DNA of 64,000 nt from an uncultured candidate division Zixibacteria bacterium (GTDB lineage Bacteria > Zixibacteria > MSB-5A5 > UBA10806 > 4484-95), in the NCBI GenBank assembly GCA_963668625.2, contig CAXXKA010000010.1, forward strand, positions 64,001 to 128,000, given 5' to 3'. Positions 9,455-33,537 of the stretch are shown here, one piece after another. The position numbers and the translations under genes were made by a program. The notes beneath the pieces are model-generated. The model was not told where the DNA came from, did no database searches, and worked only from the letters and a program-made list of their open reading frames with translations. Position 1 is the first letter of the stretch; every line of letters starts with the position of its first letter.

Positions 9455-9490
9455 TCGATTCTACCGTTATTCGCATGAAAGTGTAGTACC

Positions 9491-10117: not shown

Positions 10118-10135
10118 CTTCATTGTATTAAAATA

Positions 10136-10181
10136 AAACACCAGGCGCGTAGCACCGCACTTGCGGCGACGCCTGGTGTTT
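10136..10181. terminator. Probable bidirectional terminator
   Basis: Perfect 12-bp inverted repeat AAACACCAGGCG/CGCCTGGTGTTT between convergent genes. Confidence 0.65.
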
Positions 10182-10264
10182 ACATTTACGCTCTAACCTG
10201 CTTTATCTCAGTAACCGTCTCTAACGGATTGCGAAGTATCTGATCGGCAGGTATACTGTTTCAA

Positions 10265-10780: not shown

Positions 10781-10800
10781 GAAATACTAAGTTAACAGCT

Positions 10801-12231: not shown

Positions 12232-12322
12232 TTTCTTATCTCCCTTCTTTTATCTAAAAAAAGAATTGTTCCAAGCTGCGTTGAATAACATTCATGGTTA
12301 TTCTATCTAAATATTTCTAAAG

Positions 12323-13873: not shown

Positions 13874-14061
13874 ATATCCTTCTGCATTAATCCAAGCTTT
13901 CCCTTGAGATATTAAAGAGAATAGTTTTAAGCCAATCAATTTTAAACTTCTAAAAGAAAACATAATGTAATATATTTTGTCAGGCAAGATAATTATTGTC
14001 TCGCGGATGGTTTGCTAAATGTCACAGTAAATCGAATTTACGTATTGTAAATGGGATCATC

Positions 14062-17188: not shown

Positions 17189-19435
17189 ATGAGCGTTGTC
17201 GGAAAAAGAGTGAGACGTTCGGAAAGCCCCAACCGTGTGCTTGGCGCCGGGTTGTTCGCCGATGATTTGAAATATCACGGTATGCTTCATGCTGCAATAG
17301 TACGCTCGCCGATTGCCAGGGGGAAAATCCAACACATTGATATTGATGGTATTCTGGGCAAATCCGGCGTTAAGGGCGTTTTCACCTATAAAGATATTCC
17401 CGGCGAAAATTACATCCCGGTGGTTGTCAACGACCAGCCGGCTTTAGCGGTGAGTAACGTTAACTATATCGGTGAACCGATTGCGGTAGTAGTGGCCGAT
17501 AGCAGGCGTAATGCCCGGGCCGCCGCTGCAACCGCAGAGCTGAATATCCGGAAGCTCGAACCCCTGCTTGACTTGCTAGAGGCGCGCCACCATCCTGAGA
17601 TAATTCTTTACGGCAAAGATAATATATTCAAAAAGCTACAGGTCAATCGCGGCGATACGGAAAAAGCGTTCGGCGAATGTGAGATCATCATAGAAAACGA
17701 GTACCGCACACCCTACCAGGAACACGCTTATATCGAACCACAGGCGATGATTGCCATACCAATGCCTGACGGATCGATAGAGATACGCGGTTCTATGCAG
17801 TGCCCGTTTTACGTGCGCAAGGCGGTTACGGCCGTACTGGGTCTTCCAGAAAGCAAGGTACGGGTGATTCAGACGGCCACCGGTGGAGCTTTCGGCGGCA
17901 AGGAGGATGTTCCCTCGCTTTTAGCCTGCCAGGCAGCCATACCGGCCGCTAAGCTGGGTAAACCGATCAAGCTGGTTTACGACCGAACCGAGGATATGAT
18001 ATCAATGTCTAAACGTCACCCGAGCTGGATCAGGTACAAATCGGGCGCTACTCGTGATGGCATATTAAAGGCGGTCGAAACCGAGTATGTCATAGATGGC
18101 GGTGCGTATGCTACGCTTTCGGCCGTGGTGCTGTTCCGGGGGACCGTTCATGCCGCCGGACCATATAAATGTGAGAACGTGAAAGTCGAAAGTTACGCGG
18201 TAGCTACGAATAAAGTTCCCTGCGGAGCGTTCCGTGGTTTCGGTTCGCCTCAGATATTGTTTGCCGCCGAGTCGCAGATGGATCAACTGGCGGCTGAGTT
18301 GAATCTCGACCCGGTAGAGTTCAGGCGCAGGAATCTGCTTCGACCCGGTGATAAAACGATAACCGGTCAATACCTGAAAAACAGCGTCGGTCTGGAGAAG
18401 ACATTGGATAAAACGATTCAGGTTTCCGGCTGGAGTCCCAAAATCAAAAAAGGAATAGATGAGGGTTATGGCTTCTCGACAATCTATTACGGCGTAGGTT
18501 TGGGCGCGGGCGGAAAACATCTGGCGAAAACCGGCGCGAGGGTGATAATACACGAGGACGGCTCCGTGCTGTTCAGTGTAGGTACCACCGAGATGGGGCA
18601 GGGGATGACTACGGTGCTTTCACAGATGGTGGCCGAGGAGCTGAACGTGCCTCTGGAGTGGGTAGACATGATACCCACCGATACCAGCCGCGTACCGGAT
18701 TCCGGGCCGACTGTCGCCTCCCGTTCGACCACGATGTCGGGAAATGCGCTTCGTGATGCCTGTATGAAAATAAAAAGCGTGATGTTGACCGAGGCCTCGG
18801 AGATGACCGGTGTGCCCTCGGCGAAAATAAATTTCGAGGATGCCCGGGTATTCGCTGGTGAAAAGTCCGTTCCAATAATCGATGTCATCAAATCGTGCGC
18901 TTCCAAACGTCTGCCGCTTTCTGCCGAGGGCTGGTACGTGCCGACCGCGATCGATTTCGATGAAAACACCGGCGCGGGTAATGCTTATGTGACATACGCC
19001 TGGGCAACCAACCTGGCGAAAGTCCGGGTGGACAGGCAAACCGGTGAGATATCGGTGTTGAAACTCTGGTCGGCGCATGATATCGGCAAGGCGATCAATC
19101 CTGCCCTGGCCGAGGGACAGATAGAGGGCGGAGTTCTTCAGGGGATGGGCTACGCAGTGATGGAGGATATGAACGCGGATTCCGATGGTAAGATAATCAA
19201 CAGCGAGTTTTCTACATACATTATCCCAACGGCCGAGGATCAACCGAAGATCGTGCCGATTATAGTAGAGGATCCATATCCGGACGGCCCGTTCGGTGCA
19301 AAAGGATTCGGCGAGCAACCGTTGATGGGAGTTGCTCCGGCAATCGCCAACGCCGTTTATGATGCTGTTGGTGTGCGTATTAAAGAGCTTCCGCTTACAC
19401 CGGAAAAAGTTTGGCTGGCAATGAGGCGAAAATGA
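17189..19435 (+). CDS. Xanthine dehydrogenase family molybdopterin-binding subunit 1
   Basis: QEHAYIEP, GGAFGGKED, AFRGFG, EMGQG, TVASR, KGFGE (catalytic Glu). Confidence 0.93.
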   Translation: MSVVGKRVRRSESPNRVLGAGLFADDLKYHGMLHAAIVRSPIARGKIQHIDIDGILGKSGVKGVFTYKDIPGENYIPVVVNDQPALAVSNVNYIGEPIAVVVADSRRNARAAAATAELNIRKLEPLLDLLEARHHPEIILYGKDNIFKKLQVNRGDTEKAFGECEIIIENEYRTPYQEHAYIEPQAMIAIPMPDGSIEIRGSMQCPFYVRKAVTAVLGLPESKVRVIQTATGGAFGGKEDVPSLLACQAAIPAAKLGKPIKLVYDRTEDMISMSKRHPSWIRYKSGATRDGILKAVETEYVIDGGAYATLSAVVLFRGTVHAAGPYKCENVKVESYAVATNKVPCGAFRGFGSPQILFAAESQMDQLAAELNLDPVEFRRRNLLRPGDKTITGQYLKNSVGLEKTLDKTIQVSGWSPKIKKGIDEGYGFSTIYYGVGLGAGGKHLAKTGARVIIHEDGSVLFSVGTTEMGQGMTTVLSQMVAEELNVPLEWVDMIPTDTSRVPDSGPTVASRSTTMSGNALRDACMKIKSVMLTEASEMTGVPSAKINFEDARVFAGEKSVPIIDVIKSCASKRLPLSAEGWYVPTAIDFDENTGAGNAYVTYAWATNLAKVRVDRQTGEISVLKLWSAHDIGKAINPALAEGQIEGGVLQGMGYAVMEDMNADSDGKIINSEFSTYIIPTAEDQPKIVPIIVEDPYPDGPFGAKGFGEQPLMGVAPAIANAVYDAVGVRIKELPLTPEKVWLAMRRK

Positions 19436-19902
19436 AAATAAAATTCAAATTAAATCATGAAGATGTCGAGATAGAGGCTCCGGGGGCCGAGCGTCTGATA
19501 GATATGCTCCGCGAGCGATTCGAACTGGTCGGTACCAAGGAGGGGTGCAGCAAGGGCGAATGCGGCGCCTGCACTATTCTTCTTGACGGCAAACCGGTTT
19601 GCTCGTGCTTGATGCTGGCCTCGCAGGTAATCGGGTGCGAGGTGATCACGATCGAAGGATTGGCAATCGATGGTAAAATGCATCCGGTACAGGAAGCATT
19701 CATAGAGACCGGCGCGGTGCAGTGCGGTTTCTGTTCACCTGGTTTGCTTTTGTCCTCGGCCGCGTTATTAAACGAGATACCGAATCCTGACAGACGGCAA
19801 ATCAGGCGGGCGCTATCGGGTAACCTGTGCCGATGTACCGGCTATGAGAAGATATTCGAGGCGGTGGAGATTGCCTCGCAAATGATGAGCAAAGGCAAGT
19901 GA
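19432..19902 (+). CDS. Xdh/CoxS-type 2x[2Fe-2S] subunit 1
   Basis: GCSKGECGAC, QCGFC, CRCTGY; ATGA overlap with the upstream stop. Confidence 0.93.
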   Translation: MKIKFKLNHEDVEIEAPGAERLIDMLRERFELVGTKEGCSKGECGACTILLDGKPVCSCLMLASQVIGCEVITIEGLAIDGKMHPVQEAFIETGAVQCGFCSPGLLLSSAALLNEIPNPDRRQIRRALSGNLCRCTGYEKIFEAVEIASQMMSKGK

Positions 19903-20753
19903 TCATGGTAAAGCATGATACGATTAATCCGACAAGTTTGAAAGGCGCTCTGGAAAGCCTGGCCGGTAGCAATATCATTCCGATTGCCGGCGGTACCGAT
20001 CTACTGGTGAAACTTCATGGGCAATACGATAAACCCTGGCCCTCGCTACTGGTGTTGGAAAGAGTAAAGCCGCTTCATAAGATTCAGGTAAAGAAAAACA
20101 CGGTAGCTATTGGACCACTGCTAACGTTTTCCGATATCGAACAATCAACGGAGTTGAAGAAATACGCTTTTCAATTAGCGGAGGCCGCCTCGGTAGCCGG
20201 CTCGACCCAGATCAGAAACCGGGCAACGATCGGAGGCAATGTCGCCAATGGTTCGCCATCGGGTGATTTGCTCCCGCCGCTCTACGTGCTGGGTGCGAAA
20301 CTTCGCCTGGCCTCGGTAAATGGTAGTCGTACCGTTCCTGTCGAGGACTTTTTCGAGGGACCCGGCCGGACTATCAAAAATAAAAAAGAATTGATAACCG
20401 CAATCGAGTTCGATAAATCGTATAAAGCCGGTTTTTTCAACCGTCTGGCTACACGGAAAGCGCTGGCGATCAGTAAGGTATCGGTCGCCGCTAATATATC
20501 ACTTAAAAAAAATCGAATAGAAAATATTAAAATTGCTCTGGGCGCGGTTGCTCCCACGGTTATCAGGGCATATGAAACAGAGGAATATCTAAAAGGCAAG
20601 ATGCTGAATGATGATGTTCTGGATAAAGCTATTGGTATCATAACGAGTGAAGCGAAACCTATAGATGATCTAAGATCACTTGCCGAGTATCGCAAGGAGA
20701 TGGTTGGGGTGCTGTTCAAGCGAGGTATCGAGAAATACATGCAGGTAAATTAA
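19899..20753 (+). CDS. Xdh/CoxM-type FAD subunit 1
   Basis: AGGTDL, QIRNRATIGGN, PIDDLRS. Confidence 0.92.
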   Translation: MIMVKHDTINPTSLKGALESLAGSNIIPIAGGTDLLVKLHGQYDKPWPSLLVLERVKPLHKIQVKKNTVAIGPLLTFSDIEQSTELKKYAFQLAEAASVAGSTQIRNRATIGGNVANGSPSGDLLPPLYVLGAKLRLASVNGSRTVPVEDFFEGPGRTIKNKKELITAIEFDKSYKAGFFNRLATRKALAISKVSVAANISLKKNRIENIKIALGAVAPTVIRAYETEEYLKGKMLNDDVLDKAIGIITSEAKPIDDLRSLAEYRKEMVGVLFKRGIEKYMQVN

Positions 20754-23074
20754 TGGGCGCGAGTAAGAAATTCAATGTCCTGGGCACGGCAATCCAACGC
20801 GTAGATTCGCTGGATAAAGTAACCGGCAAGGCTGTCTATGCCGCCGATCACAACGTAACCGGTCAGCTCTTCGGCCGGGTCAAATATCCCGACTATCCCC
20901 ACGCTAAAATCCTATCGATTGATATATCTGAAGCGAAATCATTGGATGGTGTCCGGGCGGTGATGATCGCCGAGGACATTCCGGGAGAGCCATCGTTCGG
21001 CTCGGTCGTTGCTCATCAAATGGCGCTGTGTACCGATAGAGTTCGTTTCTGGGGGGATGCCGTAGCGCTGGTCGCGGCGGATACTCCGGAACTTGCCGAG
21101 TACGCCGTATCACTTATAGAGGTGGAATACGAACCTCTGGAGGTGGTAAGCGATCCTAAAGAGGCGTTAAAGAAGAAGTCTATTAAAATACATAGCGGGG
21201 GTAACCTCTGCGTTCACCATAAGGTATCTAAAGGCGATATAGAAAAGGGATTCGCCCAATCGGATATCATACTCGAACGCGATTACCGTACTCAGAAAAT
21301 TGAACACGCATATCTCGAACCGGAGGCCGTGCTGGCTCGTCCCGGAGAGAATGGCGGCGTTACTATCGTTGGTTCGGTTCAAAACCTCTATACTATAAGG
21401 CGAGCGGTTGCCCGTGTTCTGGGTGTCGAGCTAAGTCGCGTGAGAATAGAGCAGGCGGTTCTTGGCGGCTCGTTCGGCGGTAAGGATGAGGTAATGGGCG
21501 CGATGTGTTGTCGAGCTGCTTTGTTGGCGCTGGCGACCGGCAGGCCGATAAAGATAGTCAACAGCCGCGAGCAATCGATGCGCGAATCGTACAAACGTCA
21601 CCCTTACCGGATAGAATACAAGATCGGCGCTACTGAATCCGGCGTTATCAAAGCGATTCAATCCGTGATGTACGCCGATGCCGGCGCTTATGCCACCATG
21701 TCTCCTTTCGTGACCTGGCGCTCGGTGGTGCACGGTTCGGGGCCTTATCGTATAGCTAATGTCAAAACCGATGTTTACGCGGCTTACACGAACAACTGCT
21801 ACACCGGGGCTATGCGCGGTTTCGGCTCGCCGCAGGTATGTTTCGCGGTGGAATCACTCATAGATGAACTTGCAGAAAAGCTTGGTATGAATCCTTATGA
21901 GTTGAGGATAAAGAATCTCATTAAGGATAACTCGATAACGGCCACCGGTCAAAAATTACAGCATAAGGTCGGTATCAGGCAGGTTCTTGACAACGTAATA
22001 AAACGCGCTGACTATGATGATAAATGGAATCGGTACAGAAAGCAAAGCCCTGCCGACGAGTTCAAACGCGGGATCGGCTTTTCATGCAGCTATCGGGGAG
22101 TTTCGCTGGGGGCCGAGGGTATCGATGCTGCCGGTGTGAATATCTCTATTCAAACGGATGGTTCGATAATAGCCTCGACCGGTTTGATCGAAATGGGGCA
22201 GGGGGCCGCCACTACGATTTCGATGATAATCGCGGAAGAGCTTGGCGTGACCACCGATCATATAAGGTTCTTGAACGCCGACACCTCGATCACGCCCGAC
22301 TCGGGGCCGACCGTAGCCTCGCGTACTACCATAATGGCCGGCAACGCCGCTCGTAACGGTTGCCGTGAGCTTTTGAAAAAACTGAAACCTGTTGCCGCCG
22401 AATATCTGGGCTGCGCTACCGGGCAATTAAAATTAAAAGACAATATTATTCATTCTGATAATAAAGAAATGAATTTCAGTGAGCTTGCCGCGATATGTTT
22501 CGGTAAGGGGATCCCAATGTATACACTTGGCTGGTACAAGTCCCCAAAAACATCGTGGGACGAGGAGACCGGTAAAGGCGAGGCATATTTCACGTTCGTA
22601 TACGGCGCGAACCTGGCGGAGGTTGAGGTCGATTGCGTGACAGGTAAGGTGAGATTGTTGAATTTCATCAGCTCCCACGATCTTGGCAGGGTGGTAAATT
22701 TAAACGGCGCGAAAGGACAGGTTTACGGCGGTGTGGCAATGGGAATGGGATACGCCCTGTTCGAGACATACAGTGAATCCGACGGTATCCCGAAATTCGA
22801 AAACTACGACGAGTACCTGATTCCCACCATATGCGATATGCCACCCGTTGAAATCGAGTTCGTGGAAAATCCCGATAAGCTCGGCCCGTTTGGCGCGAAA
22901 TCGATAGGCGAGCCCGCGTGCGAACTGGCCGCCCCGGCAATCGCTAACGCCATATACAACGCCACCGGCAGACGATTACTCGAATTGCCTATTACATTGG
23001 AACAGGTGTTGATCGGGAAGAACCTGACTCGCACGGAATCACGCGGCTCCTCGAAAGCGCGGGGTGAAGACTGA
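20753..23074 (+). CDS. Xanthine dehydrogenase family molybdopterin-binding subunit 2
   Basis: EHAYLEP, GGSFGGKDE, AMRGFG, EMGQG, TVASR, KSIGE. Confidence 0.93.
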   Translation: MGASKKFNVLGTAIQRVDSLDKVTGKAVYAADHNVTGQLFGRVKYPDYPHAKILSIDISEAKSLDGVRAVMIAEDIPGEPSFGSVVAHQMALCTDRVRFWGDAVALVAADTPELAEYAVSLIEVEYEPLEVVSDPKEALKKKSIKIHSGGNLCVHHKVSKGDIEKGFAQSDIILERDYRTQKIEHAYLEPEAVLARPGENGGVTIVGSVQNLYTIRRAVARVLGVELSRVRIEQAVLGGSFGGKDEVMGAMCCRAALLALATGRPIKIVNSREQSMRESYKRHPYRIEYKIGATESGVIKAIQSVMYADAGAYATMSPFVTWRSVVHGSGPYRIANVKTDVYAAYTNNCYTGAMRGFGSPQVCFAVESLIDELAEKLGMNPYELRIKNLIKDNSITATGQKLQHKVGIRQVLDNVIKRADYDDKWNRYRKQSPADEFKRGIGFSCSYRGVSLGAEGIDAAGVNISIQTDGSIIASTGLIEMGQGAATTISMIIAEELGVTTDHIRFLNADTSITPDSGPTVASRTTIMAGNAARNGCRELLKKLKPVAAEYLGCATGQLKLKDNIIHSDNKEMNFSELAAICFGKGIPMYTLGWYKSPKTSWDEETGKGEAYFTFVYGANLAEVEVDCVTGKVRLLNFISSHDLGRVVNLNGAKGQVYGGVAMGMGYALFETYSESDGIPKFENYDEYLIPTICDMPPVEIEFVENPDKLGPFGAKSIGEPACELAAPAIANAIYNATGRRLLELPITLEQVLIGKNLTRTESRGSSKARGED

Positions 23075-23934
23075 TGATAAATATTAGCAGCTACGACCGA
23101 CCTGACTCGATAGACGAAGCGTTGGCCTTGATATCAGCCGAAAGATACCTGCCGCTTGCCGGAGGTACCGATCTTATCATACAGCTCAGGGCGGGTGAAC
23201 GTTCGAGGGTGCTGGATATCGGCAGGCTCGGGATGGATTATATAACCGAGCACGATAACACGATAGAGATAGGCGCGGCGGCCACTCACACGGCAATTTC
23301 CACCTCTAATTTAGCGGGGAAATACCTTCCACTGCTCAAAATCGCATCGGGGCTGGTTGGCTCCCGGCAGATCAGGAACAGGGGAACGGTTGGCGGTAAT
23401 ATCGCAAACGCCTCCCCCTGCGCTGATACCATACCGGCATTGTTAAACTATGACACCGAACTCGTCCTGATATCCAAAGGCGGAGAACGGCGGGTAAAAT
23501 TGTCTGAATTTACTATCAAGCCGTATGAGACGATTAAACGTGATGATGAGTTATTGAAATGCATCATTTGCAATAAAGATAATTTGAGTGCCGGGCATTC
23601 GTATATAAAGCTGGGAAGGCGGCAGGCGGTTAATATCTCCCGGATGAGCGTGGCGGTTACGGTAACTCGAAATGATAGTGGCCTGTTGGAGGATGTACGA
23701 ATTGCCGCAGGCTCCGTTTTTCCAACAGCCTCGAGAATACCCGGGTTGGAAAGTATGCTAATAAAGAAGAGCGCGACACCCAAACTGATAAGCGAGGCCG
23801 GAGAATACGCCGCGGAATTGATGATAGAACAAAGCGGCACGAGATGGTCTACGCCTTATAAAAAACCGGTGTTAATCGGTTTGATGATAAGAGCTATCAA
23901 TGAGGCAGTTGCCAAAGCAGGGTTAAACAGATGA
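23074..23934 (+). CDS. Xdh/CoxM-type FAD subunit 2
   Basis: AGGTDL, QIRNRGTVGGN, KLGRR. Confidence 0.92.
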   Translation: MINISSYDRPDSIDEALALISAERYLPLAGGTDLIIQLRAGERSRVLDIGRLGMDYITEHDNTIEIGAAATHTAISTSNLAGKYLPLLKIASGLVGSRQIRNRGTVGGNIANASPCADTIPALLNYDTELVLISKGGERRVKLSEFTIKPYETIKRDDELLKCIICNKDNLSAGHSYIKLGRRQAVNISRMSVAVTVTRNDSGLLEDVRIAAGSVFPTASRIPGLESMLIKKSATPKLISEAGEYAAELMIEQSGTRWSTPYKKPVLIGLMIRAINEAVAKAGLNR

Positions 23935-24461
23935 GCATAACCGATAAGATCATATCTGATACCACCGTTGATATAAGTTTCAGGTTAAACGGGGCCGGCT
24001 ATACGAAAAGCGTTCCCTCGAACTTGACTCTTCTGCGTTTTTTGCGCGAGCACATGGGATTAACCGGTACCAAGTGTGGCTGCGAGATCGGCGAATGCGG
24101 AGCTTGCACGGTTTTACTGGACGGTAAAGCCATAAACTCCTGCCTGGTTTTGGCCGGGCAGATAGATGGCGCTAGTATCTGGACAATAGAGGGCGTGAGT
24201 TCGGCCGGCGCGGAGTGCTTAAATCCGATTCAACAGGCATACCTCGACTGTGATGCCGTGCATTGCGGATTTTGTTCGCCGGGAATGATAATGTCCACAC
24301 TGGCGTTGTTCCTCGAAAATATCAATCCTGGCGAGGATGAAATTAAAACAGCTTTAGCCGGTAATCTATGTCGCTGCACAGGCTATATTCAAATTATCGA
24401 GGCTGTAAGTAAAGCGGCTTCGAATATAACGGAAAAAGACTTAAAGAAATTCAGGCATTAA
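23931..24461 (+). CDS. Xdh/CoxS-type 2x[2Fe-2S] subunit 2
   Basis: GCEIGECGAC, HCGFC, CRCTGY. Confidence 0.93.
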   Translation: MSITDKIISDTTVDISFRLNGAGYTKSVPSNLTLLRFLREHMGLTGTKCGCEIGECGACTVLLDGKAINSCLVLAGQIDGASIWTIEGVSSAGAECLNPIQQAYLDCDAVHCGFCSPGMIMSTLALFLENINPGEDEIKTALAGNLCRCTGYIQIIEAVSKAASNITEKDLKKFRH

Positions 24462-24462
24462 T

Positions 24463-25719
24463 ATGAAATTCGATGAACAAAAAATATCAGTAAGCGAACA
24501 TGATCGTAGCTGGGTATCGTATGAGATAGAACGATGCTTGAATTGCTACGATCCGCCCTGCCAGGCAAGCTGCCCGGCGGGAATTCCTATACCATCATTT
24601 ATCAGTTCTCTAAAAACGGGTAATATCAATCGCGCGGTAAAAATTATCTATCAGGCCAACCCGGTTGCTTCTATATGCGGGAAAGTATGCCCTGAGGAGA
24701 TATTCTGCCAGAGCAATTGCACCCGCTCTAAAATAGATTCGCCGGTTAAAATCAGGGAGCTTCACGGTTACGCCACCGATGCGGTTAAGGATTCGAGATT
24801 GAAAGAGAATAAGAAAAAAGGCAGCGTGGCGATAATCGGTTCCGGGCCGGCAGGAATATCATGCGCGACCGTACTATCCGAAAACGGAATGAAAACTACT
24901 ATCTATGAAAAATCGAATACCCCCGGAGGCGTACCATCCAGCAGCATACCCGATTTCCGTCTCGGAGATGATACTATCAGCCTGGATATCGAGCGAGCTG
25001 AAAATACGGGGATTAAGATTATAACTAATAAGCTTATCGATAATCCCTTGGAATTACTCGAGGAGTATAAAGCGATATTCATAGCTACAGGTTTATCGAT
25101 TAATAAGAAAGCTAAATTACCCGGTGGAGATTTGCCCGCAGTGTTGCCGGCGTTGAGTTTCCTGGAAAATGCCCGCACCGAAGGCGTATCATATGTCAGG
25201 GATAAAGATATCGTGATCGTCGGCGGAGGTAATGTTTCGCTGGATGTTGCCGCTACGGCATTGGAATCGGGAGCCTCGTCAGTCAGATTGCTTTACCGTC
25301 GAGGACCGCAACAAATGAAGGTTTGGAGATCGGAACTCGAGGAGGCGCAGTTACGAGGAGCGATCATCGACTATCTCGTGTCACCAATAGAATATCTGTC
25401 TGAATCAAACGTACTGAAAGCCGTTAGATGTATCAGGATGAAGTTATCTAACGATCTCGATACCTCTGACAGACGCGTGCCTGTTCCCGTAGACGGTTCC
25501 GAGTTCATTATTCCCGCCGACTTCATAATAGAGGCAATCGGCATGGAATCCGACTTTTGCAAAGAGATTACCGTCAACCGGGATCAGACAACATCGATTG
25601 AGGGCATTTTCGCAGGTGGTGATTGGGCCAGAGGCGAGGGTACGATAGTAGAGGCGGTTCGGGATGGCAAACAGGCGGCGCATAAAATTATGGCATATCT
25701 GAAAGAGAAAAGCATATGA
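24463..25719 (+). CDS. preT: PreT/GltD-like Fe-S flavoprotein (dihydropyrimidine dehydrogenase subunit-like)
   Basis: CLNCYDPPCQASCP, CGKVCP...CQSNC, GSGPAG, GGGNV, AGGD. Confidence 0.8.
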   Translation: MKFDEQKISVSEHDRSWVSYEIERCLNCYDPPCQASCPAGIPIPSFISSLKTGNINRAVKIIYQANPVASICGKVCPEEIFCQSNCTRSKIDSPVKIRELHGYATDAVKDSRLKENKKKGSVAIIGSGPAGISCATVLSENGMKTTIYEKSNTPGGVPSSSIPDFRLGDDTISLDIERAENTGIKIITNKLIDNPLELLEEYKAIFIATGLSINKKAKLPGGDLPAVLPALSFLENARTEGVSYVRDKDIVIVGGGNVSLDVAATALESGASSVRLLYRRGPQQMKVWRSELEEAQLRGAIIDYLVSPIEYLSESNVLKAVRCIRMKLSNDLDTSDRRVPVPVDGSEFIIPADFIIEAIGMESDFCKEITVNRDQTTSIEGIFAGGDWARGEGTIVEAVRDGKQAAHKIMAYLKEKSI

Positions 25720-26924
25720 TATTAACATCACCGAGACTTCAATCGGAATTTTTAGGAATCAAGCTGGAGAACCCGTTCATACTTTCGGCCGCGCCCTCCA
25801 CCGATGAGCTTGATATAGCTCGCGACGGCTTGAAATCCGGCTGGGCCGGTTTGATACTCAAGACAACCTCGATGCCCACGACCGGTGTAGATTTGGCTTA
25901 TCCCATGATGAGCTCGTTCAAAGACAGCGATAAAGTAATTGGAATGGGCAATATCGATCTGATCAGTATCTACCATATTGATGAGATAGTCAAAAGAGTG
26001 GCTACGCTTAAAAGCGAATTTCCCGGCAAGATGATAGGCGCTTCGATAATGTCCGATTCCAAAGAGGGCTGGCAAACTCTGGTTAAGGAGTTGAAAAACG
26101 CCGGCGCGGATTTGATCGAGTGCAGTTTCTCCTGTCCGCAAGGAAATGTCGGTGAAGATCCCGGCAAGATGCTGGCCCAGAGCGAACCGGCCACCGAGAA
26201 AGTAGCGACCTGGGTGAAAGAAGCCGCCGGTGACTTGCCCGTGCTGATAAAAATATCCCCGCAGGTAACTGATATCGTTGCTATTACCAGGGCCGTAGCG
26301 CGCTCCGGTTGTGATGGTGTAACGGCATCCAACTCGATCCCGGCGCTTATGGGAATCGATATCGAGACATTGAAACCAATCCCCGATGTCAGCGGCTATT
26401 CCACTTATTCGGGATTGACCGGCGTGGCAATCAAACCCATCACCTTGAGAACCATAGCCGAGATAGCCCGCAATGTCGAGGGTATAGTTATCTCCGGTAA
26501 TGGCGGAATCTCGAACTGGCGCGATTCCGTAGAGGTGTTGGCCGTGGGCGCCTCCAATGTGCAGATATGCACGGCGGTGATGATGCACGGATTCGGTATC
26601 ATCGAGGATTTATGTTCCGGGCTGGATGAGTATCTCGTACGGAAAGGCTATGGTTCCGTATCGGATTTGGCCGGTAAAGCTTTACCCGCGCTGACGAATC
26701 ATGACAGCTTACCTCGCCATGAGGTACGAAGCTCGGTTATCGAGGAAAACTGTATAGGTTGTGGCAGATGTTATATAGCTTGCCGTGACGGCGGCCATCG
26801 CGCCATTAGCTGGCATAATGAAAAACGCCTGCCGGAGGTAGATGAAAATAAATGTGTCGGGTGCGGACTGTGTCTTATGGTGCAGCCGGTAGAAAATTGC
26901 CTGGCTTTGAAGATAATTGAATGA
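25716..26924 (+). CDS. preA: PreA-like FMN barrel plus ferredoxin domain (dihydropyrimidine dehydrogenase subunit-like)
   Basis: NPFILSAAP, LKT, NIDLIS, SCPQG, SGNGGI, VQICTAVM, CIGCGRCYIAC and CVGCGLC. Confidence 0.8.
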   Translation: MILTSPRLQSEFLGIKLENPFILSAAPSTDELDIARDGLKSGWAGLILKTTSMPTTGVDLAYPMMSSFKDSDKVIGMGNIDLISIYHIDEIVKRVATLKSEFPGKMIGASIMSDSKEGWQTLVKELKNAGADLIECSFSCPQGNVGEDPGKMLAQSEPATEKVATWVKEAAGDLPVLIKISPQVTDIVAITRAVARSGCDGVTASNSIPALMGIDIETLKPIPDVSGYSTYSGLTGVAIKPITLRTIAEIARNVEGIVISGNGGISNWRDSVEVLAVGASNVQICTAVMMHGFGIIEDLCSGLDEYLVRKGYGSVSDLAGKALPALTNHDSLPRHEVRSSVIEENCIGCGRCYIACRDGGHRAISWHNEKRLPEVDENKCVGCGLCLMVQPVENCLALKIIE

Positions 26925-26952: not shown

Positions 26953-28698
26953 ATGTCATCAAACCCATTTGCCAGACGGTCAACCCAGTCGATCAAGGAA
27001 CTGGTCGAGGTATCCTCGGGAAAGAAGCCTGCGGATATATGTCTGGAAAACGCAAAAATAGTTAATGTTTATTCCAACGAGATTATCGAGGGCAATGTCG
27101 CGATATACCAGGATAGAATTGCCGGTGTAGGGCCGAAATACAAAGCTACCAAAAAAATCAATCTAAAAGGCAAATATATTGCGCCCGGTTTTATAGACGG
27201 TCACTTTCATATCGAATCCTCACTGGTAATTATTCCCGAGTTAGCCCGGGTGATCGTACCTCGTGGGACAACCTCTGTTATCGCCGATCCTCACGAGATA
27301 ACCAACGTGCTCGGGTATGACGGTATAAGGTTCATGCTGGAATCTTCCAAGTATAATCCACTTAACGTTTTTTTCACCCTGCCCTCATGCGTTCCGGCAA
27401 CCGATCTGGAGACCTCCGGCTCATCCATGAAAGCATTCGATATATTTCCGTTCTTTACCGAGAAATGGGTCGTGGGTTTGGGCGAGGTAATGAACTACCC
27501 CGGTGTGCTGAACGGTCAGGATGATGTTATCGAAAAAATCGCTATTACCGAGGGGAAACGTATCGATGGTCACGCGCCCGGAGTTGGTGGCAAAGACCTG
27601 GCCGGATATATCTCCGCCGGTATCGCTTCCGATCACGAGTCGACCTCGCTGGAGGAAGCCCGCGAGAAACTTAGGCTGGGTATGTACGTGATGATACGCG
27701 AGGGCTCCGCGGCTAAAAATCTCGATAGCCTTTTACCCCTGGTGAACCATAAGAACAAAGGTCGATTCATATTCGTAACCGATGATCACAATCCGCTGGA
27801 TATCCTGTCGGCCGGGCATATCGACGGCGTAGTCAGAAAAGCGATCAAGAAAGGTCTCGATCCGATTACCGCCATTCAGCTTGCTACATTGAACCCGGCG
27901 GAGTATTTCGGCGTAACCGATATCGGCGCGATCGCTCCCGGATTGCTCGCCGATATGATCGTGTTCGAGGATTTGAAGAAGATCAATATCACCGATGTTT
28001 ATAAAAGCGGCAAGCAGGTCGGGAAAAACGGCAAGCCTGTTTATGATGATGTCCCGCATCCCCGCCCGGTTATAAGGAGCACGGTCAATATCAAATGGCT
28101 CGAGGGGAACGAGTTTCGTATTCCTGCCGAAAACGGTAAATGCCGCGTTATCGGAATAGTACCGAACCAGCTGGTGACCAATAGCAAGGTATTAAAGCCA
28201 AAAGTTCAGAATGGCGAAGTCGTTTCCGATCCCGGGCGTGATATCCTGAAACTATTCGTACTCGAAAGGCATACCGCCTCGGGAAGAATCGGTAAAGGAC
28301 TGGTGCAAGGGTTAGGTATTAAAAAGGGGGCCGTTGCCACCTCGATAGCTCACGATTCGCATAATATCATTGCGGCAGGTGTTAACGATGAGGACATATT
28401 CAAAGCCGTGATACAGATAAACAAAATCGGCGGCGGTATGGCTGTCGTTGCCGACGGCAAACTTCTGGCGGATGTCAAACTACCGATAGCCGGACTGATG
28501 TCGGATAAATCGATGATTGATGTCGCAGCCGATATCAAGAAGCTCAAGAAGACGATTCGTAAACTGGGTTCGGAACTGGAGGACCCGATGATGACATTGA
28601 GTTTCATGGCGTTGCCGGTTATCCCTCAATTGAAGCTTACTGATTTCGGCTTGATCGATGTCAACAGTTTCCAGCAAGTGGGGCTGTTCGTTGACTGA
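26953..28698 (+). CDS. ade: Adenine deaminase
   Basis: DGHFHIESS, DPHEI, EVMNYPGV, DGHAP, REGSAAKNL, AHDSHN, LPVIP. Confidence 0.93.
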   Translation: MSSNPFARRSTQSIKELVEVSSGKKPADICLENAKIVNVYSNEIIEGNVAIYQDRIAGVGPKYKATKKINLKGKYIAPGFIDGHFHIESSLVIIPELARVIVPRGTTSVIADPHEITNVLGYDGIRFMLESSKYNPLNVFFTLPSCVPATDLETSGSSMKAFDIFPFFTEKWVVGLGEVMNYPGVLNGQDDVIEKIAITEGKRIDGHAPGVGGKDLAGYISAGIASDHESTSLEEAREKLRLGMYVMIREGSAAKNLDSLLPLVNHKNKGRFIFVTDDHNPLDILSAGHIDGVVRKAIKKGLDPITAIQLATLNPAEYFGVTDIGAIAPGLLADMIVFEDLKKINITDVYKSGKQVGKNGKPVYDDVPHPRPVIRSTVNIKWLEGNEFRIPAENGKCRVIGIVPNQLVTNSKVLKPKVQNGEVVSDPGRDILKLFVLERHTASGRIGKGLVQGLGIKKGAVATSIAHDSHNIIAAGVNDEDIFKAVIQINKIGGGMAVVADGKLLADVKLPIAGLMSDKSMIDVAADIKKLKKTIRKLGSELEDPMMTLSFMALPVIPQLKLTDFGLIDVNSFQQVGLFVD

Positions 28699-30025
28699 TA
28701 AAGCTAAGCTAATAGTATCGTGTCAGGATATTTTCACCAATGAAAAAAGCTGTCCGCTTATTCGCTCCGGCGCGATACTCATGGAAGACGGATTGGTCAA
28801 AGAGGTTGGCGAGGCCGGGAAAATTAAAGCTCGATATCCGGAGGCTAAAGTCGAAAATCTCGGCGCCGGCCTAATTACGCCGGGATTGGTTAACCTTCAC
28901 CATCACCTTTACTCCTCTTTCGCCAGAGGCTGGAATCCCGGAACGGAATCTCCGGTTAATTTCCCGCAAATATTAGAACGTATCTGGTGGCGACTCGATA
29001 AAGCTCTTAACCTCGATGATATATACTACTCCGCAATAGTCGGTTTGTGCGAATCGATACGTATGGGAGTAACCGCCGTTGTCGATCACCACGCCGGCCA
29101 GAATATGGTAACAGGTTCGTTGGATAATATCGCCGCCGCATTTACCGAAATAGGTTTGAAAGGTTCGGTCTGTTTCGAGTTAAGCGACAGAGGTGGATCG
29201 AGTATTTTTCAGGATGGGTTAAGCGAAAATATTAACGCTATCGAAAAGTATAATATGACCAACAGTAAGCTCGAACCGATGGTTGGACTTCACGCCTCTC
29301 TGACTCTTTCGGATAAGAGTTTGGAAACGATATATCGCGCAACAAAGGATTCGGGTGCGGGATATCATCTGCATTTGGCCGAGGATAAATCCGATCAAGA
29401 GGATTCGGAATCCAAATATGGTATGAGGGTCACCGAACGTTTTGCCAGGTATAATCTGTTAAATGATAAATCGCTGGCCATTCATGGAGTTCATCTAAAC
29501 GATGATGAAATCAAGATTTTAGCGGATGCCGGCGCAAACCTGGTAATTTGTCCCCGATCGAATCAGAACAACGGCGTAGGTATTCCTCGATGGTGGGACT
29601 ATGATAACGTTAATGTCGGCCTGGGTACCGATGGGATCGATTCGAGTGTTATCAACGAGGCGAAATCTGCGCTATATATAACTCATCACGAGCGTAAAAA
29701 TCCCGATTTCGGATTCGGCCGGCTTAGCGATATGCTTTTCGGGCGCAATCCCGAGATATTCGAAAAAATTACCGGTGTGAGAGTCGGAAAGATAGCTGCA
29801 GGTCATCCGGCTGATATTGTTTATTGGGATTACGACTCACCTACGCCCGTAAATGAAAATAACATAGCCGGCCATTACCTGTACGGGCTGGGCAATCATC
29901 TAGCCGATACCGTTTGGATTGATGGTGAAAAAGTATATGGAAAAGGCGAGTTCAAAAAAATCGATTATAGAAAACTCATGAGCGAAGCACGAGAGGCGGC
30001 CGGTAGTTTATGGCAAAGATTATAA
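28691..30025 (+). CDS. ssnA: SsnA-like metal-dependent aminohydrolase
   Basis: NLHHHLYSSFARG, WWRLDKAL, GLHASLT, HLHLAED, GTDG. TTG start at 28691 overlapping the ade stop is inferred. Confidence 0.85.
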   Translation: MTDKAKLIVSCQDIFTNEKSCPLIRSGAILMEDGLVKEVGEAGKIKARYPEAKVENLGAGLITPGLVNLHHHLYSSFARGWNPGTESPVNFPQILERIWWRLDKALNLDDIYYSAIVGLCESIRMGVTAVVDHHAGQNMVTGSLDNIAAAFTEIGLKGSVCFELSDRGGSSIFQDGLSENINAIEKYNMTNSKLEPMVGLHASLTLSDKSLETIYRATKDSGAGYHLHLAEDKSDQEDSESKYGMRVTERFARYNLLNDKSLAIHGVHLNDDEIKILADAGANLVICPRSNQNNGVGIPRWWDYDNVNVGLGTDGIDSSVINEAKSALYITHHERKNPDFGFGRLSDMLFGRNPEIFEKITGVRVGKIAAGHPADIVYWDYDSPTPVNENNIAGHYLYGLGNHLADTVWIDGEKVYGKGEFKKIDYRKLMSEAREAAGSLWQRL

Positions 30026-31269
30026 AATACAGCCTGAAGTGTGTTTCCTGTGATAAGGAATTTGAGCCCAAATCGAGCGTAATGACCTGTCCCGAATGCG
30101 GCGAGTTCAGGGGCACGCTAGATGTAATCTATCCATACGATGAAATAAAAAGCAGTTTTACGAAACCTTTATCGTTTTATGGCAGAGATTCGGTCTACGA
30201 ATCATTATTGCCTATTATGCCATACGATAATCCTGCCTGCTTGCCTCCCGTACCTGTCGGTTCGACACCTATATTCGAATCACCGGCCTTATCGAAAATA
30301 CTGGGGCTGAACAATCTCTGGCTGAAAGATGACAGCCGCAATCCCTCGGCCTCATTGAAAGACAGGGCGTCGGCAACAACGCTGGCTATGGCTAATGAAT
30401 CTGGCGCCTCGGTAATCGCGGTTGCCTCTACCGGTAACGCCGCCTCCTCGCTGGCAACATTGGCAGCCTCTATGTCGATAACCGCCATGCTGTTCGTCCC
30501 AAAAACTATACCTCGCCCCAAGCTGGCCCAGCTGACTATTCACGGAGCTAAAATTATCTGCCTCGATTGCGACTACGACAGTGCGTTCGACCTATGTCAG
30601 CTTGCCTGTAAAAGATTTGGCTGGTACAACCGTAACACCGCGGTAAACCCGTACACCGGCGAGGGCAAGAAAACAGCCGCGCTGGAAATCGCCTGTAGCC
30701 TGGGGGAATCGCCGGATGTAGTAATATGTCCTGTAGGGGATGGCTGTATACTGAGTGGGATTTACAAGGGATTTTGGGATCTTCGGAAATTAGGCCTTAT
30801 AGATAAGATACCGAGACTTTACGGTGTGCAGGCCTCGGGTTCAGCGCCGCTGGTAAAAGCTTTCGAAAGCGGTAACGATATAACGCCAATCGAAAGTGTC
30901 AACACTATCGCGGATTCCATTTCGGTCGGTTACCCTCGTGATGGCGTTAAAGCGATGAGAGCGGTCAAAAATAGCAGTGGTAAATTCATAACCGTCTCCG
31001 ATGATCAAATAGTTAAAGCTCAGCAACTGGCGGCCTCGAAAGGCGGCGTTTTCGTTGAGCCGGCGGCGGCGGCGGCGATCGCGGGGCTGTTATCACTTAA
31101 CGAGAATAACGAATTCTCGAAAAACGAAAAAATCGTAACCTTACTTACGGGGCATGGCCTGAAAGATATCGACACGGTAATTAAAAATACTAAAACCGAT
31201 ATCGAAATCATGCAACCGGATATCGATATCATAACCGAAAAGATAGAAAAAACTATACGCTGGAGATAA
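30010..31269 (+). CDS. Threonine-synthase-like PLP enzyme (fold type II) with N-terminal Zn ribbon; substrate probably not O-phosphohomoserine
   Basis: CVSC/CPEC, NPSASLKDR (Schiff-base Lys), ASTGNAA, PVGDG, TGHGLK. Confidence 0.8.
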   Translation: MAKIIKYSLKCVSCDKEFEPKSSVMTCPECGEFRGTLDVIYPYDEIKSSFTKPLSFYGRDSVYESLLPIMPYDNPACLPPVPVGSTPIFESPALSKILGLNNLWLKDDSRNPSASLKDRASATTLAMANESGASVIAVASTGNAASSLATLAASMSITAMLFVPKTIPRPKLAQLTIHGAKIICLDCDYDSAFDLCQLACKRFGWYNRNTAVNPYTGEGKKTAALEIACSLGESPDVVICPVGDGCILSGIYKGFWDLRKLGLIDKIPRLYGVQASGSAPLVKAFESGNDITPIESVNTIADSISVGYPRDGVKAMRAVKNSSGKFITVSDDQIVKAQQLAASKGGVFVEPAAAAAIAGLLSLNENNEFSKNEKIVTLLTGHGLKDIDTVIKNTKTDIEIMQPDIDIITEKIEKTIRWR

Positions 31270-31279
31270 AGGAGAACTT

Positions 31280-32332
31280 ATGGCAATCAAGTGGGATGCG
31301 TACAACACTATCACCGATAACATTTTCGATACTATCGGCAGAACACCTTTAGTTAGATTGAGTAAAATCCCCGAACTGACCGGAATCGACTGCGAGATAC
31401 TGGGCAAACTGGAATATTTCTCGCCCTCAGGAAGCTTGAAAGACAGAATTTACCTGAATATGTTCGATCTGGCCGAACAAAGAGGCGAACTGAAACCCGG
31501 TATGACCGTGCTGGAATGCTCGACGGGAAATGCCGGAATCGGTTGCTCTTTCGTAGCCGCCACCAAAGGATACAAGTGCATCATAGTAATGCCCAGGGGG
31601 ATGTCCGAAGAGCGTAAAATGCTCGATATGATTTATGGTTCGGAGATGGTTTACACACCAGGCGGTGAAAGCGATGTCGATTTAGCATTGGAGAAGTTGC
31701 AGGAAATTAAAAATCAGGATCCAGATAAATACTGGGTACCGGCACAGTTCGATAATCCCGACAATATCGAGGCGCATTACCGCACTACCGGTCCTGAGAT
31801 ATGGGAGCAGACGGATGGTAAGTTCGATGCTTTCATCGCGACCCAGGGAACCGGAGGCACGATCACGGGGGCGGGAAGGTATTTCCATCAGTTCAATAAA
31901 GATATCAAACTTTACGCTATCGAACCGGCGGAATGCCCACTTCTTTCAAAACGTGTCTGGGGACCGCATGGCATCGAGGGTATCGGGGATGGTTTCGTGC
32001 CGCTAAATCTCGATGTCTCGATCCTTAGTGGCATTATTACCACTACCACCAAAGAAGCTGTGGAGATGGCTAAAATATTAGCCGCCAAAGAGGGGATATT
32101 CTGCGGAATATCATCGGGTTCTAATGTCGCCTCGGCTGTTAAGCTGGCGAAGAAACATCCGGAGATAAAACGAATCGTAACCATGATTAACGACACGGGT
32201 CAGCGTTATTTCTCGACACCGTTATGCGGGGTGGAGAAACATCTGGAGATACCCGAAAGATCTCACCCTATGGACGATAGAACTATTGCGGAGCTGGATA
32301 AATATCAAGCTGACTGGGAAATTATCGAATGA
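31280..32332 (+). CDS. Cysteine-synthase-like PLP enzyme (fold type II)
   Basis: IGRTPLV, SGSLKDR, CSTGNAG, QFDNPDN, GTGGT, GISSG. Confidence 0.8.
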   Translation: MAIKWDAYNTITDNIFDTIGRTPLVRLSKIPELTGIDCEILGKLEYFSPSGSLKDRIYLNMFDLAEQRGELKPGMTVLECSTGNAGIGCSFVAATKGYKCIIVMPRGMSEERKMLDMIYGSEMVYTPGGESDVDLALEKLQEIKNQDPDKYWVPAQFDNPDNIEAHYRTTGPEIWEQTDGKFDAFIATQGTGGTITGAGRYFHQFNKDIKLYAIEPAECPLLSKRVWGPHGIEGIGDGFVPLNLDVSILSGIITTTTKEAVEMAKILAAKEGIFCGISSGSNVASAVKLAKKHPEIKRIVTMINDTGQRYFSTPLCGVEKHLEIPERSHPMDDRTIAELDKYQADWEIIE

Positions 32333-33537
32333 GTACACCTGATCCCAAAGAGATATTAAAAAGTGCGGAGAAATACCGCGACTACTCCAGCGAGCTGCTC
32401 TCGAAACTGATCAGGATACCGTCGGTTTCCGGTGAGGAGAAAAGCGTAGTCGAATTCCTCGAACAGGAATTCAATGAGTGCGGTGCTGATGAGGTTACTA
32501 TCGATCCTTTCGGCAACATAATCGCCCGGTTGGGTAGCGGTAAGCCGGCAATCGCTCTCGATGCTCATATCGATACGGTCGATATCGGTATGAAAGACCA
32601 GTGGCAAACCGATCCGTTCTCGGGCATAATCCGGGATGGTAAAGTATTCGGCAGGGGAACATCCGACCAGAAAGCCGGTATGGCCTCCATGATGACAGCC
32701 CTGAGAATTCTTAAAGAATGCTGTGATGATTTTCCGTTCACACTGTATTTTACCGGTTCGGTACTGGAGGAGGATTGTGACGGTTTATGCTGGCAGTATA
32801 TTATCAAAGAGGACAAACTAAAACCCGATCTGGTAATCATCACCGAACCAACCGACGGTAAAATCAATCGCGGGCAACGCGGACGTATGGAGATCGAGAT
32901 CGTTACGAAAGGCGTATCATGTCATGGTTCGGCTCCGGAGCGTGGCGATAACGCGATCTACAAGTTGGCCCCGATAATAACCGCCCTCGAGAAACTTAAC
33001 GAGAGATTAAAAACGGATGAGTTCCTGGGGAAAGGCACCCTGGCTATCTCGAGAATTCGATCCAATGCTCCCTCGCTTTGTGCCGTGGCGGATATGGCGG
33101 CGTTATATATAGACAGGCGAACCACCGCCGGCGAGACCGCCGAATCGGTAGTTGCCGAGATTAACGCCTTACCTGAGGTAAGGGCGGCGAACGCTACCAT
33201 AGTGATTCCTGAATATGACAGGCGTACCTGGAACGGGCTGTCGTACCCTACCTCCAAAATATTTCCGGCCTGGGCGCTTCCCGAGAATCATGATTATCTG
33301 GATAAGGCATCAGGATGCTATGAGTCGTTATTCGATACCGAGCCCGTAATAGATAAATGGACGTTCTCGACTAATGGTGTAGCCACTATGGGCATGTTCG
33401 ATATTCCAACGTTCGGTTATGGCCCGGGGATGGAGAAAATGGCACACGCGCCCAATGAGTACATGAATATAGATGACCTCGTGAAATGCTCGGCGTTTTA
33501 TGCCGCTTATCCTTTTGCGTTTGTCAATGAATACTAA
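32329..33537 (+). CDS. ygeY: YgeY family M20 hydrolase
   Basis: DAHIDTV, GRGTSDQK, EEDCDGLCW, RGQRGR, SCHGSAPERGDNA, WTFSTNGV, AHAPNE. Confidence 0.9.
   Translation: MSTPDPKEILKSAEKYRDYSSELLSKLIRIPSVSGEEKSVVEFLEQEFNECGADEVTIDPFGNIIARLGSGKPAIALDAHIDTVDIGMKDQWQTDPFSGIIRDGKVFGRGTSDQKAGMASMMTALRILKECCDDFPFTLYFTGSVLEEDCDGLCWQYIIKEDKLKPDLVIITEPTDGKINRGQRGRMEIEIVTKGVSCHGSAPERGDNAIYKLAPIITALEKLNERLKTDEFLGKGTLAISRIRSNAPSLCAVADMAALYIDRRTTAGETAESVVAEINALPEVRAANATIVIPEYDRRTWNGLSYPTSKIFPAWALPENHDYLDKASGCYESLFDTEPVIDKWTFSTNGVATMGMFDIPTFGYGPGMEKMAHAPNEYMNIDDLVKCSAFYAAYPFAFVNEY

Follow-up and report, generated by a model that had tools for sequence, protein, structure and literature searches.

A serine-type PreT/PreA pair as the probable counterpart of YgfK in a reductive urate gene cluster of a Zixibacteria bacterium

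In Escherichia (E.) coli, the PreT and PreA proteins reportedly constitute a dihydropyrimidine dehydrogenase (DPD) that depends on nicotinamide adenine dinucleotide (NAD), a function said to have been established by Hidese et al. in 2011. The reductive pathway of urate degradation, which proceeds via 2,8-dioxopurine, was solved only in 2025 and is in use to find and engineer urate-lowering bacteria. In this pathway, YgfK together with SsnA turns 2,8-dioxopurine into ureidomethyl-hydantoin and 5-ureido-dihydrouracil, as reported by Li et al. (2025, PMC12507026). Both products as given there have a CH2 group at C6, a CH group at C5 and a new carbonyl at C4, which implies a DPD-type reduction at C5-C6 and hydrolysis at C4. 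Here, we describe a preT-preA-like gene pair at positions 24463-26924 of a 64,000-nucleotide stretch of DNA (referred to as the window; contig CAXXKA010000010.1, positions 64,001 to 128,000 of the forward strand, assembly GCA_963668625.2) from an uncultured candidate division Zixibacteria bacterium. The pair is part of a gene cluster that includes ssnA and lacks ygfK, and it probably encodes a two-subunit, NAD(P)H-linked iron-sulfur (Fe-S) flavoenzyme with the architecture of DPD that has been re-specialised for 2,8-dioxopurine, i.e., an enzyme that does the job of YgfK.

Replacement of YgfK by a homologue of the PydA/DHO_dh family is already published. Li et al. (PMC12507026) describe UacX, a PydA homologue of Clostridioides (C.) difficile that takes the place of YgfK, has no domain for flavin adenine dinucleotide (FAD) and is probably ferredoxin-dependent. 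In the network analysis of the same study, "UacX" denotes a PF01180 protein encoded near ssnA, a scoring under which a PreT/PreA form would be counted as well, with no distinction made. Barba et al. (2013, PMC4016543) described a "DHase X1", which branches off before PreA/PydA and occurs together with hyuA, ygeW, ygeY, ssnA, xdhABC and yqeA; X1 is probably the same protein as the UacX of C. difficile (Q181U4). The literature searches turned up no account of a PreT/PreA branch that is linked to NAD(P)H and was recruited independently to the pathway as a third ring reductase, and the names "PreT" and "PreA" have no occurrence in the two urate-pathway papers from 2025.

The two genes of the pair overlap, the stop of the preT-like gene and the start of the preA-like gene sharing the sequence ATGA at 25716-25719:

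24463-25719, + strand: PreT-like subunit, the proposed electron-input subunit, with the Pfam domains Fer4_20 (residues 17-110, the N-terminal two [4Fe-4S] clusters) and Pyr_redox_2 (residues 121-402, FAD and NAD(P)H)
25716-26924, + strand: Ser-type PreA-like subunit, the proposed 2,8-dioxopurine-reducing catalytic subunit, an open reading frame (ORF) of 402 residues

In the PreA-like protein, Pfam identifies a DHO_dh domain (residues 8-307), i.e., a triosephosphate isomerase (TIM) barrel that binds flavin mononucleotide (FMN), followed by a C-terminal Fer4_21 domain with two [4Fe-4S] clusters (residues 341-397). A preliminary description of the locus had placed the element at 25716-26700, an extent that covers the TIM-barrel part and leaves out the Fer4_21 domain; the ORF ends at 26924. 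A HMMER alignment with pig DPD (E 3.1e-65) spans DPD residues 535-850 and 912-1003. The fold is that of DPD domains IV-V: an AlphaFold model based on 38 aligned relatives has a mean predicted local distance difference test (pLDDT) score of 92, and its top structural matches are DPD chains, with template-modelling (TM) scores of 0.89-0.91 on the query. The NCBIfam PreA equivalog model NF006183 gives the protein 403 bits (cut-off 335). This model also passes all of the relatives that are referred to below as Ser-type, and it thus does not separate these from the Asn-type clade, where the two terms denote the residue, serine or asparagine, at the position of residue 137 of the window protein.

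Relatives of the pair include fused PreT-PreA single chains (P0122, P0124 and P0126; 830-861 residues), in which the same four domains are found in the order seen in DPD. These fused forms and the ATGA overlap argue that PreT and PreA make up one enzyme with a DPD-like electron path. A PreT-like gene is present in 71 of the 77 Ser-type loci. With YgfK, the PreT-like protein of the window shares a match to the central part only (238 bits, positions 439-837).

The residues that bind the pyrimidine in DPD are known from structure 1H7X, for which a 2024 review (PMC10970046) lists the contacts with 5-fluorouracil. There, O4 of the ligand is near Asn668 ND2 (3.1 Å), Ser670 OG (3.3 Å) and Asn736 ND2 (3.0 Å), while O2 interacts with Asn609 ND2 and Thr737 OG1, N1 with Asn609 and N3 with Asn736; C6 is located near the carbonyl of Glu611. 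HMMER pairs the pig segments "lelnlscphg" and "gvtatntvsg" with "iecsfscpqg" and "gvtasnsipa", respectively, of the window protein. The substitutions from pig to window are Asn668>Ser137, His673>Gln142, Thr735>Ser205 and Thr737>Ser207, and Ser670, Cys671 and Asn736 are kept. The Asn609 stretch is shifted by HMMER in this pairwise alignment; in the family alignment N79 shares a column with the Asn of the Asn-type motif NIELI[ST], i.e., Asn609 is retained. The motifs on which the preliminary description was built, NIDLIS (residues 79-84), ECSFSCPQG (135-143) and ASNSI (204-208), are all in place, as is the catalytic Cys it had noted, pig Cys671 corresponding to Cys140 within SFSCPQG in the HMMER alignment. 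The pocket signature is N79 D81 C136 S137 S139 C140 N206 S207, in which the full set of uracil ligands (Asn609, Asn668, Ser670, Asn736 and Thr737) is incomplete at Ser137 and Ser207.

Since SFSCPQG is kept in 120 of the 120 closest database homologues (60-81% identity), the motif is not a matter of chance. E. coli PreA (K-12; 36% identity over 399 residues) reads IECNFSCPQ and AINTV. It therefore has the very Gln that had been taken as an altered pocket residue, and that part of the earlier argument falls: Leu669>Phe and His673>Gln were both discarded as signals of a purine pocket because they are normal in E. coli PreA, a characterised uracil reductase. The two remaining changes in the earlier argument, Asn>Ser and Thr>Ser, are both present, and Asn668>Ser is diagnostic. 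The other, Thr737>Ser, is restricted to a subclade and was dropped as a marker of the clade, as ssnA-linked members of the clade in one of the genome samples introduced below (sample B) read CSFSCPHG and AINT.

The residue comparison was based on a family alignment of 133 PreA-like ORFs combined with an unbiased scan for clade-specific positions, which returned 11 such positions (Ser137, Asp81, Met64 and eight more). Two of the 11, D81 and S137, belong to the eight listed ligand-contact residues (p = 0.017). All canonical clade members, i.e., those with the motif CS[FY]SCP, have Ser at position 137, where 43/43 Asn-type relatives have Asn. At position 81, Glu is found in the same 43/43 relatives, and Asp is invariant, like Ser137, in the clade of 77 sequences; this Glu611>Asp81 change (NIDLIS vs NIELIS), absent from the preliminary description, is as diagnostic as Asn668>Ser. 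Outside the listed contacts, Met64 (window 25905-25907) is a Met in all canonical members of the Ser clade and the Arg of an S-P-R motif in 43/43 Asn-type relatives, and the nearby Leu60 and Tyr62 are also clade-specific. In the ferredoxin domain, the last cluster motif (window 26853-26900, PreA residues 380-395) is CxxCxxCxxxQP, in which Gln390 takes the place of the expected fourth Cys. This position is Cys in 56, Gln in 13 and Arg in 4 of the 78 rows of the Ser clade, and Cys in 38/38 Asn-type rows that cover the region; Gln390 could mean a three-Cys cluster or an unusual ligand.

Seen against the published 1H7X contacts, the changes would be consistent with an enlarged pocket in the window protein. 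The ligand on the O4 side would have to change because C4 of 2,8-dioxopurine bears N9 of the fused imidazolone instead of O4; Ser137 is smaller than Asn and would be able to accept a hydrogen bond from N9-H.

The link between this residue and the genetic context was followed across genomes. A scan of species-representative genomes yielded 53 true homologous loci (44-79% identity), which span Zixibacteria, Ignavibacteria/Bacteroidota, Eisenbacteria, Krumholzibacteriia, Myxococcales, Phycisphaerales, Pseudomonadota and one Mageeibacillus bin. A recurring order among the relatives is a xanthine-dehydrogenase set, PreT and PreA, with SsnA, an enzyme dependent on pyridoxal 5'-phosphate (PLP), YgeY and YgeW nearby; where a related locus extends far enough, the xanthine-dehydrogenase set is in most cases immediately upstream of PreT-PreA. 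For Asn-type controls, two samples, each of 301 genomes, were searched with the PreA model. The first, sample A, represents the phylum of genome G002 (143 genomes above the PreA cut-off), and sample B the phylum of genome G001 (41 genomes at E<=1e-70), from which 40 of 43 matches were taken, the three left out scoring 638-679 bits.

Among distinct loci (two duplicates removed), ssnA (>=150 bits) was found in 59/77 of the Ser type and in 0/53 of the Asn type, and all 18 Ser-type loci without ssnA were ended early by a contig end. For loci with at least 8 kb of flank on both sides, the counts are 39/39 and 0/31, respectively; linkage to ssnA, a check that the preliminary description had proposed for its motif, is thus seen for the Ser type. 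Instead of ssnA, the Asn-type loci contain PreT and a dihydropyrimidinase-like gene. Three genomes (G289, G316 and G092) each harbor one copy of both types, the Asn-type copy beside PreT and the Ser-type copy beside ssnA; in two of the three the Asn-type copy is also beside dihydropyrimidinase.

Canonical Ser-type genes and YgfK were not found together. None of the 74 genomes with a canonical CS[FY]SCP gene (the window's own genome, G002-G005, 47 further genomes, 16 from sample B and six from sample A) has a YgfK above the cut-off. In sample B, the 68 ssnA-positive genomes are divided without any overlap into 35 with YgfK, 16 with Ser-type PreT/PreA, 13 with X1 and four with none of these, i.e., all YgfK genomes and all Ser-type genomes of this sample are ssnA-positive; the 233 ssnA-negative genomes hold no YgfK, no Ser type and one weak X1 match. 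Fisher's test for YgfK against the Ser type gives p = 8e-7 in sample B, a value that is descriptive because the genomes are related. The proposal that the window enzyme stands in for YgfK is thus carried by comparative genomics, i.e., the ssnA counts, the 74 genomes and the three genomes with both types, while the residue argument that originally led to it needed the corrections given above.

The X1 type came to light among the 17 ssnA-positive genomes of sample B without YgfK or the Ser type: in 16 of them the ssnA neighbourhood was examined, and in 11 it contains a third reductase. This protein consists of DHO_dh and ferredoxin domains (~360 residues), is not accompanied by PreT, lacks the S-C-P loop and displays the motifs NTELWSEL, ELSTHY and LINS[FL]GPC. 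A search with one X1-type protein identified 14 genomes in sample B, 13 of which are ssnA-positive and none of which has YgfK or the Ser type. Sources of X1-type proteins include Clostridium, Paraclostridium, Halanaerobium and Desulfotomaculum, among others. The name C. difficile was absent in an exact look-up of ten X1-type proteins, as well as among the homologues listed for a Clostridium X1 protein and for a sample-B Ser-type protein. A separate PreA-like subfamily in sample B (L161-L166; 290-319 bits, under the PreA cut-off) reads ELNVSCPMP and ISNS and has no PreT. Its genes adjoin xanthine-dehydrogenase genes, with no ssnA within the available stretch, and five of the six genomes have YgfK.

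Phylogenetic analysis places the proteins with Ser at position 137 in one clade (FastTree; 77/131 rows, support 99), which requires one state change; the neighbouring group, outside the Ser-type branch, comprises E. coli PreA and the PydA-like Asn types. In an IQ-TREE analysis rooted on PyrD of the window's own genome (EINISCPN), the Ser clade (support 100) branches from within the Asn-type PreA and X1 falls outside all PreA-like rows (support 97). Forcing the Ser clade and X1 together costs 46 log-likelihood units and is rejected by the approximately unbiased (AU) test (p-AU 0.0056). The "ELST" of X1 aligns with "ELNI" of a solved dihydroorotate dehydrogenase B (DHODH B) in HMMER and with "ECSF" of the window protein in MAFFT, which points to a Ser at the Asn668 position of X1; a Ser is also found at 737. 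Judged from these alignments, the two ssnA-linked lineages appear to have swapped the same O4-binding Asn for Ser independently. This parallel is the best argument that the residue itself matters, beyond membership of a clade. No description of the Asn668>Ser/Glu611>Asp signature or of the X1 convergence was found in the literature.

By homology to DPD, NAD(P)H would reduce the FAD in PreT, and the electrons would cross four [4Fe-4S] clusters to the FMN in PreA. The reduced FMN would then transfer a hydride to C6 of 2,8-dioxopurine, with Cys140 (pig Cys671) protonating C5, and the adjacent SsnA would hydrolyse the dihydro product. Compared to uracil, 2,8-dioxopurine has an extra fused imidazolone ring at the C4-C5 edge. 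Here, Asn668>Ser137, the one invariant change among the hydrogen-bonding uracil ligands, would remove the amide donor to uracil O4, and Glu611>Asp81 would shorten a neighbouring side chain.

The gene cluster that surrounds the pair spans 13996-34595 (20 kb), mostly on one strand, with ssnA located 1.7 kb downstream of the preA-like gene:

13996-15459, + strand: HyuA-like hydantoinase/dihydropyrimidinase (TIGR02033, 468 bits, cut-off 393; 38% identity to E. coli HyuA)
15597-16583, + strand: YgeW-like carbamoyltransferase, 328 residues (Pfam OTCace_N and OTCace; 41% to E. coli YgeW)
16576-17184, + strand: MocA-like molybdenum cofactor cytidylyltransferase (Pfam NTP_transf_3)
17189-20753, + strand: xanthine-dehydrogenase-type set 1 (molybdenum subunit 17189-19435, 2Fe-2S subunit 19411-19902, FAD subunit 19899-20753; Pfam, NCBIfam)
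20753-24461, + strand: xanthine-dehydrogenase-type set 2, directly upstream of preT (molybdenum subunit 20753-23074, FAD subunit 23074-23934, 2Fe-2S subunit 23931-24461; Pfam, NCBIfam)
26953-28698, + strand: adenine deaminase (TIGR01178, 656 bits, cut-off 472)
28658-30025, + strand: SsnA amidohydrolase, the ring-opening enzyme for the reduced purine in the published pathway (NF005540, 462 bits, cut-off 444; 35% to E. coli SsnA)
30010-32332, + strand: two PLP enzymes, threonine-synthase-like (30010-31269) and CysK-like (31280-32332) (Pfam PALP, both under the NCBIfam cut-offs)
32329-33537, + strand: YgeY M20 hydrolase (NF009555, 542 bits, cut-off 321; 52% to E. coli YgeY)
33819-34595, - strand: XdhC-type chaperone for molybdenum-cofactor insertion (Pfam XdhC_C and XdhC_CoxI)

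Except for YgfK, YgeX and YqeA, the cluster has the gene set of the reductive urate pathway. In the genome, which is 95.9% complete, no protein reaches the 835-bit cut-off of the YgfK model (TIGR03315), the best score being 309 bits; the match of a 1064-residue open frame to YgfK is confined to the central, GltD-like part of the latter. There is only one PreA-type gene, and a carbamate-kinase-like gene is found elsewhere in the genome. A YgeX-type diaminopropionate ammonia-lyase was not detected in the genome with TIGR01747; its expected place is occupied by the two PLP enzymes, the second of which is CysK/SbnA-like, and the final reaction of the pathway may differ in this organism. A threonine-synthase-like PLP gene comes after ssnA in many of the related loci. 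The YgeW-like protein is short (328 residues vs 396 in E. coli), and its top NCBIfam match, YgeW at 274 bits, is under the cut-off of 453, so that it remains below every NCBIfam cut-off. The xanthine-dehydrogenase sets share 40% identity with one another, and both are nearer to E. coli XdhA (31%) than to XdhD (27%), i.e., identity assigns neither as the XdhD equivalent. Scans for promoters and terminators gave site numbers no higher than in shuffled sequences.

Two selD genes, one of them with an in-frame TGA, are also present in the genome; the coordinates of these genes and of the 1064-residue frame are given jointly as G000:C8:1163217-1164503, G000:C8:1138152 and G000:C1:154251. The flanks of the cluster (7589-12781 and 37455-39817) encode catalase, a ferritin-like protein, rubrerythrin, a Fur-family regulator and cytochrome bd oxidase. 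Although the pathway is known from anaerobes, a strict gut-type anaerobe is an unlikely host.

A number of observations weigh against the assignment of the pair as a 2,8-dioxopurine reductase or limit how far the comparison with X1 can be taken. Exclusivity with YgfK is not absolute: in three genomes (G001, G356 and G642), a true YgfK coexists with a divergent member of the Ser clade. The G001 member reads CSMSCPQG and has Asn736>Asp. In G642 (L159:9402-10631) and G356 (L160:9485-10708) the gene is encoded between true ygfK and ssnA, and the protein reads CSISF with Cys671>Phe; these two genes may be degenerate or repurposed copies. Loss of a catalytic or ligand residue in the divergent members fits with redundancy once YgfK is present. 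Furthermore, most of the genomes are metagenome bins, in which the absence of YgfK means that it was not found and is no proof that it is missing, and the sample A loci are 40 of about 154 matches, chosen by the authors and weighted to middle and low scores. Within PreA, the link between residue and context is a single evolutionary event, and Ser137 is inseparable from the other 10 clade-specific changes; what carries weight is a linkage that persists to about 45-50% identity across many phyla. As for X1, the apparent convergence depends on aligning ELS across the deleted Cys loop, the group forced together in the AU test was defined only after the tree was known, and for UacX itself the paper by Li et al. 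(PMC12507026) gives an assay in its Methods, and no result was found in its main text. Finally, the dihydropyrimidinase-family enzyme in the cluster and the lack of another PreA in the genome make it possible that the window enzyme reduces uracil.

This last point leads to the alternative that the pair is an ordinary dihydropyrimidine dehydrogenase for uracil and thymine within a large cluster for nucleobase catabolism, as its automatic name would have it. The score above the NCBIfam PreA cut-off (403 vs 335), the PreT partner, the catalytic Cys, Asn609 and Asn736 all agree with such a function, as do the dihydropyrimidinase-family gene and the status of the gene as the sole PreA type in the genome. 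We nevertheless find it improbable: the O4 ligand Asn668, kept in all of the Asn-type relatives, is Ser in every canonical member of the clade, ssnA is absent from the 53 Asn-type loci, and three genomes maintain both types in separate contexts. Another role would leave the pair without any heterocycle to reduce, as an electron-transfer module for the neighbouring molybdenum hydroxylase. The position directly downstream of a xanthine-dehydrogenase set, shared by most related loci that extend far enough, would fit, and other enzymes use PreT/GltD-type modules as adapters between NAD(P)H and Fe-S clusters. However, both xanthine-dehydrogenase sets have FAD and 2Fe-2S subunits of their own, and the conservation of Cys671, Ser670, Asn609 and Asn736 in the canonical clade would be needless in a pure electron carrier, which makes this role very improbable.

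It is also conceivable, if unlikely, that the enzyme reduces a different purine-derived heterocycle, such as xanthine, urate, 8-oxopurine or ureido-uracil. We infer the substrate from the ssnA neighbourhood only, and formation of 2,8-dioxopurine in this organism is itself presumed, as neither xanthine-dehydrogenase set is closer to XdhD than to XdhA; in addition, an adenine deaminase is found in the cluster and a YgeX homologue is missing, i.e., details of the pathway differ. What favors 2,8-dioxopurine over these compounds is that SsnA, found in 39/39 well-flanked loci, is the partner reported to draw YgfK's reaction on 2,8-dioxopurine forward (PMC12507026, where YgfK alone gave no product), and that mutual exclusivity with YgfK and X1 fits one shared reaction.

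A further, more tentative idea, to which we assign slightly less than an even chance, is that Asn668>Ser represents a convergent switch from pyrimidines to 2,8-dioxopurine, gained separately by PreT/PreA and by the older X1 lineage, in which case the same pathway would use at least three ring reductases (YgfK, X1/UacX and Ser-type PreT/PreA) that are unrelated or were recruited separately. If so, one alignment column would separate urate degraders from pyrimidine degraders among proteins automatically named PreA, and the pathway would reach environmental phyla (Zixibacteria, Ignavibacteria and others) that encode catalase and cytochrome bd. Surveys that use ygfK as a marker would miss the PreT/PreA users, which make up 16 of the 68 ssnA-positive genomes in sample B. 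Wherever a name is given at the source, it is PreA for the listed homologues of the window protein and, with one exception, for those listed for a sample-B Ser-type protein; together with the passing of Ser-type proteins by NF006183, this looks like systematic over-annotation as PreA. Should Ser137 be the specificity switch, a simple rule for reannotation would follow, as well as a mutational handle on how a pyrimidine enzyme came to act on purines (Ser137Asn in the window enzyme; Asn>Ser in E. coli PreA).

Among the described systems, pig DPD (1H7X and related structures) is the best match in both sequence and fold, and its domain order is that of the fused Ser-type forms. It differs in being a single chain of 1025 residues and in having Asn668, Glu611, Thr737 and His673 where the window protein has Ser, Asp, Ser and Gln, respectively. 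E. coli PreT/PreA shares the upstream position of preT, the Pfam domains, the FSCPQ loop, the catalytic Cys and the C-terminal ferredoxin domain; in contrast to the window protein, E. coli PreA has Asn at the 668 position, reads NMEQI and AINTV and is encoded away from any ssnA cluster. PydAc of Clostridium chromiireducens, cited by Li et al. (PMC12507026) as a ferredoxin-dependent dihydropyrimidine dehydrogenase, has a PreA-like catalytic unit with FMN and Fe-S clusters, but stands alone without PreT and acts on pyrimidines.

Two further systems are alike in their proposed function. Like the window protein, UacX/X1 belongs to the DHO_dh family (PF01180) and occupies the place of YgfK next to ssnA, and X1-type proteins read INS at 736-737 and have Ser where pig DPD has Asn668. 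Unlike the Ser-type proteins, X1 is only ~360 residues long, has no PreT, lacks the Cys loop (ELSTHY) and branches outside all PreA-like proteins. E. coli YgfK (Li et al. 2025, PMC12507026; Liu et al. 2025, preprint) is proposed to share with the PreT/PreA pair the reaction, the SsnA partner and the logic of NAD(P)H, FAD, FMN and Fe-S clusters. It belongs to a different family, and its N-terminal barrel has no SCP Cys loop, as seen in a three-sequence alignment that is poor outside a few motifs.

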